Shown here: piece after piece, positions 24,606-26,386 of the stretch
How positions within the stretch are numbered: position 1 is the first letter of the stretch
Layout: every line of letters begins with the position of its first letter
Assembly: GCA_017989935.1 (NCBI GenBank)
Contig: JAGNOY010000002.1
Coordinates: forward strand, 1-27,706
Source of the DNA: Chitinophagaceae bacterium
Lineage (GTDB): Bacteria; Bacteroidota; Bacteroidia; Chitinophagales; Chitinophagaceae
Length of the DNA: 27,706 bases
Direction: 5' to 3'
The notes under the pieces: model-generated
Databases searched by the model: none
Told to the model about the DNA's origin: nothing
Seen by the model: the letters and a program-made list of their open reading frames with translations, nothing else
Made by a program: the position numbers and the translations under genes

Positions 24606-25757
24606 ATGGCAGAAAATTACGTAGTATCCGCGATTAAATACAGACCTCAACACTTTAATACAGTGATTGGGCAGTCGCATATTACCACTACCTTGAAAAA
24701 CGCTATTCGCACCGATCAACTGGCTCATTCATTTTTGTTTTGCGGACCAAGAGGCGTAGGAAAAACAACCTGTGCGAGAATTTTGGCCAAAACCATTAAT
24801 TGTACCAATCGCCGCGAAGATGCAGAAGCTTGTGATGAATGCGCCTCTTGTGTATCATTTAGAGAAAATACTTCTTTTAATATTCATGAATTAGATGCGG
24901 CCTCGAATAATTCCGTTGATGATATTCGTGAATTAATAGAGCAAGTGAGATTTGCGCCCCAAGGAGGCAGTAAATACAAGGTATATATTATTGATGAGGT
25001 GCACATGTTAAGTACTAGTGCCTTTAATGCTTTTTTGAAGACATTAGAAGAGCCTCCTACTTACGCCATATTTATTTTAGCGACTACAGAAAAACACAAA
25101 ATACTTCCAACCATTTTATCGCGTTGTCAGATATTTGATTTCAACCGAATTACTATCAAGGACATTGTAGAGCACTTGGCTGATATTTGTACGAAAGAAG
25201 ATATTCAAAGTGAAACCGAAGCCTTACATCTTATAGCTCAAAAAAGTGAAGGTTGTATGCGTGATGCCTTGTCTATCATGGACAAGATTGCAAGTTTTAG
25301 TAATGATAAAATAACTTATAGCTCTACCGTTGAACATTTGAACATACTAGACTACGATTATTATTTCCGTTTGGTAGAATCGTTGATGTTGCAGGACTTA
25401 AGTAGCGTATTGCTGTTGTTTGATGAAATCAACAGTAAAGGATTTGAAGGCGATATGTTTATGCAAGGCATGACTGAACATTTTAGAAACTTGCTCATGT
25501 GTAAGGATGTGCGTGTAGCTAAGTTGTTGGATTTGCCAGAAAAAATTAAAGCGACTTATTATGATCAGGCTAATCAATTAAGTCAGGCCTATATAGTAAA
25601 TGCATTGTCAATTTTAAATGCTTCAGAAATTCAATACAAGCAATCACGCAATAAGCGTCTTCATGTTGAATTGGCCTTGATCAAATTAAATCATTTACCA
25701 TCAGCCATTCAATTATTCAGTGATGAAGAAGGAGGACTTGTAAAAAAAAAATCCTAA
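24606..25757 (+). CDS. dnaX: DNA polymerase III clamp loader subunit, zero-frame gamma-like product (383 aa, start MAENY)
   Basis: KYRPQHF, GPRGVGKTT, zinc-binding Cys cluster, ELDAASNN, IIDEVHML, SRC; ends V-K-K-K-S-stop on an A10 run. Confidence 0.96.
   Translation: MAENYVVSAIKYRPQHFNTVIGQSHITTTLKNAIRTDQLAHSFLFCGPRGVGKTTCARILAKTINCTNRREDAEACDECASCVSFRENTSFNIHELDAASNNSVDDIRELIEQVRFAPQGGSKYKVYIIDEVHMLSTSAFNAFLKTLEEPPTYAIFILATTEKHKILPTILSRCQIFDFNRITIKDIVEHLADICTKEDIQSETEALHLIAQKSEGCMRDALSIMDKIASFSNDKITYSSTVEHLNILDYDYYFRLVESLMLQDLSSVLLLFDEINSKGFEGDMFMQGMTEHFRNLLMCKDVRVAKLLDLPEKIKATYYDQANQLSQAYIVNALSILNASEIQYKQSRNKRLHVELALIKLNHLPSAIQLFSDEEGGLVKKKS
25731..25757 (+). other. Putative recoding site: GGAGG-N6-A10-TCC-TAA (-1 ribosomal frameshift or +1A transcriptional slippage)
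   Basis: The -1 frame is open from the A-run into the downstream ORF and is closed upstream by TGA at 25724-25726. Confidence 0.75.
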
Positions 25758-26386
25758 GCGGGAATACGTTTCAACTAAGTAGTGGGAAATTTAGTTTGCA
25801 TGCACCAATAAAAATGGCTGCTGAAACTAATACCCCAGCAGCCACTGTAGTAAATATTGAATCTCAAACACCCGTTAATATCCCACAAAATACAAATCCT
25901 TCATCTGCGCCTGCGATGGAAAAGAAAGAAGGATACGGATTGACCCTTGGGAGTTTGAAAAAATTAAAAGATAGCGCACGGGAAAAACTCAAAGCTAATT
26001 TAGAGAATAAAGAATCCATTGAAATTACAGATGAAAATTTGGCTGAAGCTTGGGTGCAATTAGTGAATTTAATTGCGTCTCATAAAGTGCTTTATAAAAG
26101 TGCCTTATTAGAAAGTGACTTAAGTTTTATTGGACATGAAATTTCTTTAGCAGGCGATTTGGTGGCGATGGATTTTTTAAAAACAGAAAGGCTTACCTTA
26201 CTTGATTTTTTCAAAAAGCATTATCACAATGAAGAGATTAATGTTTTATTTAAAGAAAAAGTAAATGCTCCAATAGATGCTAGCAAGCATGTACCAAGTA
26301 CCAGAGAATTGTTTGAAGAAATGGCAAAACGAAATCCTTATCTAAAGCAATTAAAAGATAGTTTAGGATTAGATATTGAGTATTAA
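25751..26386 (+). CDS. dnaX: C-terminal tau-specific part of DnaX in the -1 frame (211 codons, ILSGNTFQLSSGKFSLHAP...); fused product 593 aa
   Basis: Low-complexity P/T/N linker followed by a domain ending RELFEEMAKRNPYLKQLKDSLGLDIEY, like Bacteroidota tau C-termini; the ORF track starts it at an internal TTG (25796). Confidence 0.78.
   Translation: MLSGNTFQLSSGKFSLHAPIKMAAETNTPAATVVNIESQTPVNIPQNTNPSSAPAMEKKEGYGLTLGSLKKLKDSAREKLKANLENKESIEITDENLAEAWVQLVNLIASHKVLYKSALLESDLSFIGHEISLAGDLVAMDFLKTERLTLLDFFKKHYHNEEINVLFKEKVNAPIDASKHVPSTRELFEEMAKRNPYLKQLKDSLGLDIEY

Follow-up and report, generated by a model that had tools for sequence, protein, structure and literature searches.

The split dnaX gene

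The window analyzed here, a stretch of 27,706 nucleotides (nt), is contig C326 of a fragmented Chitinophagaceae metagenome-assembled genome (MAG; 411 contigs, 71% complete), and the population that it represents is present in many wastewater and activated-sludge metagenomes. It carries the single copy of dnaX in this MAG, and the gene is divided between two overlapping frames of the forward strand. The first open reading frame (ORF1; 24606 to 25757) starts with the ATG at 24606 and encodes a gamma-like product of 383 amino acids (aa), consisting of clamp-loader domains I to III plus about 17 aa. Its 3' end reads GGA GGA CTT GTA AAA AAA AAA TCC TAA and contains a run of 10 A's (A10; 25742 to 25751) in the frame-0 phase GT[A AAA AAA AAA], with the stop codon TAA (25755 to 25757) one codon past the run.

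In the -1 frame, two TGA codons (25721 to 25726) block translation from upstream, and the frame is then open from 25727 to a TAA at 26384 to 26386. The overlap between the two frames is about 30 nt long, contains the A10 run, and is the sole stretch in which a tau C terminus can be joined to ORF1. Joining the frames at the run adds the second part (ORF2; 211 codons plus stop, 25751 to 26386), which is assigned to tau on the grounds that the fused product is homologous to full-length DnaX. The fused product has 382 + 211 = 593 aa, with the junction ...GLVKKKILSGNTFQ and the junction peptide ...LVKKKILSGNTFQ. The +1 frame is closed by a TAG at 25780 to 25782, 10 codons beyond the run. Two further features lie close by, namely, a GGAGG word (25731 to 25735) within the codons GAA GGA GGA (E-G-G) and a weak inverted repeat (25773 to 25796) with the arms AACTAAGT (25773 to 25780) and ATTTAGTT (25789 to 25796). 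The ORF ends, the A10 run, the -1 ORF, GGAGG, and both arms had all been located correctly in an earlier examination of the DNA letters, here called the sequence-only reading.

Identity of the two parts and reading across the junction

ORF1 has the domain content of a clamp-loader subunit, with matches to the Pfam families DNA_pol3_delta2 (PF13177; residues 23 to 182), DNAX_ATPase_lid (PF22608; 187 to 227), and DNA_pol3_gamma3 (PF12169; 248 to 365), and it scores 438 bits against TIGR02397 (dnaX_nterm; cutoff, 250). The C-terminal part (ORF2) had no match in Pfam. The fused 593-aa protein, in turn, matches the NCBIfam model for full-length gamma/tau (NF011531; 614 positions) over its whole length, with residues 3 to 592 aligned to positions 2 to 613 at 696 bits (cutoff, 685), and ORF2 alone covers positions 427 to 613 of that profile. 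ORF2 also aligns with the in-frame C termini of relatives across the phylum. It is made up of a variable linker rich in Pro, Thr, and Ser and then a conserved domain, about 120 aa in length, that terminates in ...MAxKNPxLxxLKxxLxLDxE in the alignment and in ...MAKRNPYLKQLKDSLGLDIEY in the window.

Several features of the congeneric sequences bear on how ORF2 is reached. The residues KKK-ILSG... right after the run are kept across the genus, whereas the first ATG of the -1 frame has no fixed position, lying anywhere from +44 to +329 nt past the run or being absent within 400 nt. The frame-0 stop codon alternates among congeners between TAA and TGA, which in the -1 frame is a synonymous change between the Leu codons CTA and CTG. 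Together with the end-to-end match to NF011531, the conserved ILSG, the absence of a fixed ATG, and the synonymous stop codon alternation indicate that translation of the -1 frame runs through the junction. Standard decoding of this gene yields only the gamma-like protein with domains I to III, and the tau tail lies in the -1 frame. The proposal of the sequence-only reading that the short subunit is made by default and the long subunit needs recoding is thus borne out by the layout, by its conservation, and by the homology of the fused product.

The closest relative (L007 from genome G023; N-terminal part 96% identical) differs at the far end of the gene. A TAA cuts its -1 ORF short by about 23 codons, and its tau tail lacks the conserved ...KNPxLxxLK...LD.E end.

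Conservation of the layout among congeners and in independent DNA assemblies

Contigs assembled from DNA sequencing runs of two different studies span the run without gaps (X1, a 794-nt piece, and X2, a 2,550-nt piece), and both have A10. The comparison within the genus covered a draw of 24 congeneric species. In 16 of these 24 species, the site is arranged as xTA AAA AAA AAA NNN TAA/TGA and the -1 frame holds the tau tail, including some with assemblies of 10 to 20 contigs, and the run is A10 in 15 of the 16 and A9G in the remaining one. All three Lys codons are AAA, and the preceding codon varies among GTA, TTA, and CTA but always ends in A. In this genome, AAA accounts for 0.77 of Lys codons, GTA accounts for 0.36 of Val codons, and TTA and CTA together account for 0.50 of Leu codons. 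The run length itself is thus under a constraint that goes beyond the needs of a slippery heptamer. Because the layout is conserved, the recoding itself appears to be programmed.

Three other congeners that form one closely related group (L006, L008, and L009) have the same A10 with the same codons inside a continuous 593-aa ORF. Their site reads GTA AAA AAA AAA CTA TTG (at about codon 379), and here it is the -1 and +1 frames that close, after 9 and 2 codons, respectively. The sequence-only reading had asked whether relatives keep the Lys run, the stop, and the -1 ORF or have a continuous tau ORF; both situations occur within this genus, the former in 16 congeners and the latter in these 3.

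The A-run site across Bacteroidota

We extended the comparison to 125 Bacteroidota dnaX loci, combining the genus and order samples with 80 loci drawn phylum-wide. Most had A10 at the site (86 loci), and the position of the tau tail among these varied, with 47 in frame 0, 29 in the -1 frame, 8 in the +1 frame, and 2 unclear. An A9 run was found at 11 loci (9 in frame 0, 1 in the -1 frame, none in the +1 frame, and 1 unclear) and an A11 run at 5 (3 in frame 0 and 1 each in the -1 and +1 frames, with none unclear). Single loci had A12 (-1 frame), A13 (unclear), and A7 (frame 0), and 20 loci had no run of at least seven A's. Across the surveyed loci, the runs occur in all three codon phases.

The +1 layout is consistent within a second genus of the order. 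In 5 of 5 species there (L031, L118, L120, L122, and L134), A10 is followed directly by TAA or TAG, and the tau tail of 195 to 214 codons lies in the +1 frame. Such a layout needs transcripts that are one nucleotide shorter or two longer than the template (n-1 or n+2), and a -1 ribosomal shift cannot serve it. In the survey as a whole, loci with the -1 layout, which requires insertion, outnumber those with the +1 layout, and this fits the reported bias of A runs toward insertion of "up to 6 extra nts" (PMC5009743).

Taken together, these patterns raise the possibility, to which we give about even weight, that the conserved element in Bacteroidota is A10 itself and that the tau tail has moved repeatedly among frames 0, -1, and +1 through small indels behind the run, even within one genus, with the run itself remaining exactly ten A's long. 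If so, RNA polymerase in this phylum would make transcripts of the n-1, n, and n+1 types at rates that are tuned and similar to one another, and an essential replication protein would routinely be produced from nontemplated mRNA.

Transcriptional slippage at the run as the probable explanation

We consider programmed transcriptional slippage at A10 to be the probable explanation for the split gene, and the best available. RNA polymerase would slip on the A10 run (T10 in the template) and generate a mixture of mRNAs. Transcripts with the templated A10, and also those with A9 or A12, would lead ribosomes to a stop 1 to 10 codons past the run and yield gamma (about 383 to 391 aa, domains I to III). 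Transcripts with one extra A (A11, and also A8 or A14) would place the downstream 211 codons in frame and yield the 593-aa tau. It is an inference that the slippage belongs to transcription and not to the ribosome, and likewise that the cell obtains useful amounts of both gamma and tau. The sequence-only reading had named transcriptional slippage as the alternative to ribosomal -1 frameshifting, and it is this alternative that fits the comparative data better.

A first line of evidence is the behavior of the frames that do not encode tau. At loci with runs of at least 9 A's (n = 200 frames), the non-tau frames close at a median of 2 codons past the run, with 83% closing within 5 codons and a maximum of 15. 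For comparison, frames at random positions in the long ORFs of this genome close at a median of 7 to 8 codons, and 39 to 44% of them do so within 5. Early closure of both non-tau frames would be expected if transcripts of several lengths were abundant.

A second line is the treatment of long runs in the genome itself. Baranov et al. (2005) proposed that avoidance of long runs in coding sequence marks genomes in which such runs slip (PMC1088944). In the 2.5 Mb of this genome, the longest A/T run is 10 nt, and the share of runs located inside long ORFs falls from 0.86 at length 5 to 0.45 at length 9 and 0.36 at length 10. By that criterion, avoidance of A/T runs here suggests a genome in which they slip. 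The constrained run length, the presence of A10 whichever frame holds the tau tail, the lack of a conserved Shine-Dalgarno-like word or RNA structure near the run, and the precedents of Thermus and of the 2013 prediction described below also speak for slippage.

Runs as long as that in dnaX are few. There are 14 A/T runs of length 10 in the genome, and five of them, including that in dnaX, are in long open frames; other runs of this length are found, for example, at C58:4639-4648, C135:2201-2210, C380:7645-7654, and C387:14116-14125.

Several points weigh against slippage, the case for which is built on sequence comparison. The RNA evidence comes from Logan contigs, and contigs hide minor variants. 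A single RNA-library contig (X25; 191 nt, depth 4.5) spans the run; it has A9 plus a single-nucleotide polymorphism, whereas tau needs A11; given the polymorphism, this contig may come from another strain. A metatranscriptome contig (X26; 248 nt, depth 2.2) has one extra A at an ordinary A6 run (25540 to 25545), which the DNA contigs do not have. This extra A probably reflects a difference between strains or noise from complementary DNA (cDNA) or from assembly, and its occurrence at an ordinary run implies that cDNA contigs are noisy at A runs in general. The surveyed loci are phylogenetically nonindependent, with 24 of them from one genus. In addition, the run contains two in-phase A_AAA_AAA heptamers, at which ribosomal -1 shifting may contribute. 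Finally, aragorn recovered 19 tRNAs and no tRNA-Lys from the 71%-complete MAG, which leaves no basis for arguments from tRNAs.

Alternative explanations

The main rival of slippage, which we consider unlikely, is that most tau comes from -1 programmed ribosomal frameshifting, with tandem slippage of tRNA-Lys on A_AAA_AAA and with or without stimulators. The phase xxA AAA AAA AAA, with its two in-phase heptamers, is present in all 16 split congeners, and A_AAA_AAG occurs in one congener. Atkins et al. (2016) frame the reversed layout as ribosomal frameshifting, and a Chlorobium candidate with stimulators like those of Escherichia coli is mentioned in the same review (PMC5009743). However, A_AAA_AAA is far less shift prone than A_AAA_AAG in E. 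coli, according to that review. Ten A's are kept where seven would suffice, including the wobble A of a codon that otherwise varies. Moreover, the same A10 serves the +1 layouts of the second genus and occurs in every codon phase across the phylum.

The stimulators proposed for such a shift are not supported. The sequence-only reading had taken GGAGG for a Shine-Dalgarno (SD)-like stimulator, but among the 16 split congeners the five-letter SD-like word is present in the window only. Five others have SD-like words of no more than four letters, and 10 have none within 20 nt. In L007, the closest relative, the corresponding codons are GGC GGA, so that GGAGG has become GGCGG by a synonymous Gly change; other congeners have GGT AAT, GGC TCA, GGA AAT, and so on at the position of GGA GGA.

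The downstream hairpin that had been proposed fares no better. RNAalifold predicted no base pairs in 135 nt around the run in the 16 congeners, and for the 80 nt 3' of the run the folding energy is -16.8 kcal/mol (z = -1.46), a value reached by 20 of 200 shuffled sequences. The AACTAAGT/ATTTAGTT hairpin is a real inverted repeat, but it is absent from the minimum-free-energy fold of those 80 nt, and the proposed stem begins 21 nt past the run, a distance at which a classical -1 stimulator would not be expected to act. What survives of the sequence-only reading is thus the polarity and the need for recoding and not the ribosomal mechanism stimulated by an SD-like element and a hairpin.

A hairpin in the nascent RNA upstream of the run was also considered as a candidate element and rejected. 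It has no conserved pairs, and the 80 nt 5' of the run show no significant folding (z = +0.72).

Very improbable, in our view, is that the split gene is expressed without recoding, as gamma plus a free C-terminal tau fragment initiated at its own start codon. The -1 ORF of the window does contain two codons that could start such a fragment, namely, TTG (25796) and ATG (25814). However, no start codon is conserved among congeners, the conserved ILSG directly past the run lies upstream of any start, and relatives carry the same sequence as one continuous protein. Tau tethers the polymerase to the clamp loader, and a tau fragment lacking the clamp-loader domains could not do so.

That the split is an artefact or a sign of decay, either a homopolymer assembly error hiding a true A11 or a dnaX pseudogene, might be suspected from the fragmented source MAG and from two congeners that look damaged (L021 and L016, described below), but this is excluded for practical purposes by the A10 in DNA contigs of two independent studies, which answers the concern of the sequence-only reading about a misassembled A11 or A8, and by the identical layout in 16 species, including the less-fragmented assemblies, and it is further disfavored by dnaX being essential and single copy here and by the conservation of the C-terminal part at the protein level.

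Comparison with known systems

The dnaX gene of E. coli uses -1 programmed ribosomal frameshifting at A_AAA_AAG, with an SD-like stimulator upstream and a stem-loop 3' of the site. The window shares with it the gene, the domain boundary, a slippery sequence of Lys codons, and two products with a common N terminus, and an in-phase heptamer of the X_XXY_YYZ type occurs twice, as A_AAA_AAA. In contrast to E. coli, the polarity is reversed, and a 10-nt homopolymer is conserved instead of a heptamer. The remaining elements of the E. coli cassette, namely, an SD-like element and a stable stem-loop about 5 to 9 nt after the heptamer, were not found as conserved features across the 16 congeners.

Two-ORF dnaX genes with the polarity found here have been described before. 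Antonov et al. (2013; NAR 41:6514), working with the GeneTack dnaX cluster, listed 17 such genes in 12 genera, with the second ORF in the -1 frame at the DNA level and with A10 in nine of them (PMC3711429). The members include Flavobacterium johnsoniae, F. psychrophilum, Cytophaga hutchinsonii, Capnocytophaga ochracea, Chlorobi, and Coraliomargarita (PMC3711429). These genes were aligned to the A9 site of Thermus and predicted to use transcriptional realignment (PMC3711429). The two-ORF class that needs recoding for tau is described again in a later review (PMC5009743). The window matches this class in its -1 layout, in carrying A10 where the gamma ORF ends, a few codons at most before the frame-0 stop, and in having the tau tail in an overlapping ORF; genes of this class have a poly-A run of 7 to 10 A's that ends ORF1 with a stop just behind it, as is the case here. 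It differs in that its genus is not among the 12 listed, and its closest named relatives are Chitinophagaceae at about 69% identity. An experimental test of a two-ORF dnaX in Bacteroidota was not found in the literature searched.

The sequence-only reading had allowed that split dnaX genes might already be documented in the phylum and that the novelty might lie in the mechanism; the claim of novelty is not supported, as the 2013 publication already covers the reversed polarity in Bacteroidetes, Chlorobi, and Coraliomargarita (PMC3711429; PMC5009743). What is new here is one more lineage, in a genus not listed before; the layout itself is already known. The 2013 work covered only the -1 two-ORF subset, and the phylum-wide view of three tau frames with run length as a tuned parameter may not have been explicitly laid out before.

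For Thermus thermophilus dnaX, transcriptional slippage at A9 was reported by Larsen et al. (2000; PNAS 97:1683), as cited in PMC1088944 and PMC5009743. Thermus-type sites have at least nine A's or T's in the coding strand and close stops in both non-tau frames. In the window, the run has 10 A's, and the stops are 1 codon (frame 0) and about 10 codons (+1 frame) away. The two genes are alike in having a poly-A run at the gamma/tau boundary and nearby stops in the alternative frames, and, in the accounts of Thermus given by these citing papers, mRNAs of differing run length are likewise the proposed source of both products. The polarity differs, in that the templated mRNA of Thermus gives tau and the slipped mRNA gives gamma, whereas in the window the templated mRNA gives gamma and n+1 (or n-2 or n+4) transcripts would give tau. 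In the three congeners with a continuous ORF, the same A10 goes together with the Thermus polarity, within a genus of the reversed type.

A longer product that needs transcriptional slippage also has a precedent in mxiE of Shigella flexneri, as cited in PMC1088944. In both cases, a nontemplated nucleotide at a homopolymer would join two overlapping ORFs into the longer functional protein. The genes are unrelated, however, and the mxiE run consists of U's; furthermore, gamma functions as a subunit of the clamp loader, and no separate role is known for the short product of mxiE.

The finding raises no new question, as the layout has been in print since 2013. It does affect annotation, in that the two ORFs belong in a single dnaX entry that includes a programmed slippage site and should not be recorded as a pseudogene or as two genes. 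It also adds comparative support for RNA polymerase slippage over ribosomal frameshifting and points to one more lineage in which tau, an essential replisome subunit, would depend on nontemplated nucleotides.

The C-terminal domain of the tau tail and damaged sites in two congeners

Related KH-like folds have been described for DnaA domain I, the DciA N-domain, and tau domain V. We modeled the tail (25751 to 26383) with AlphaFold from a 42-sequence alignment, and its residues 90 to 205 were predicted with a predicted local distance difference test score (pLDDT) of >90. The best PDB matches of the model were to DnaA domain I (4tps; TMt 0.64 to 0.67) with a nonsignificant E value of 3e-3. Weaker matches, also with nonsignificant E values, were to the DciA N-domain and to the C-terminal part of E. 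coli tau in 5fku_E (TMt 0.38). A profile search likewise returned DnaA domain I together with the PolC N terminus (E = 0.004 to 0.009). The modeled tail is compatible with a module like tau domain V, though this is no proof. As modeled, the domain is closer to DnaA domain I (4tps) than to any solved tau fragment.

Two of the congeneric dnaX loci look damaged. In L021, from a single-contig genome (G011), the run is A9 and the C-terminal match is interrupted by five stops; in L016 (from G002), the frame changes a second time 85 codons into the tau tail. Such defects resemble those left by long-read assembly, in the form of homopolymer or indel errors, or by decay.

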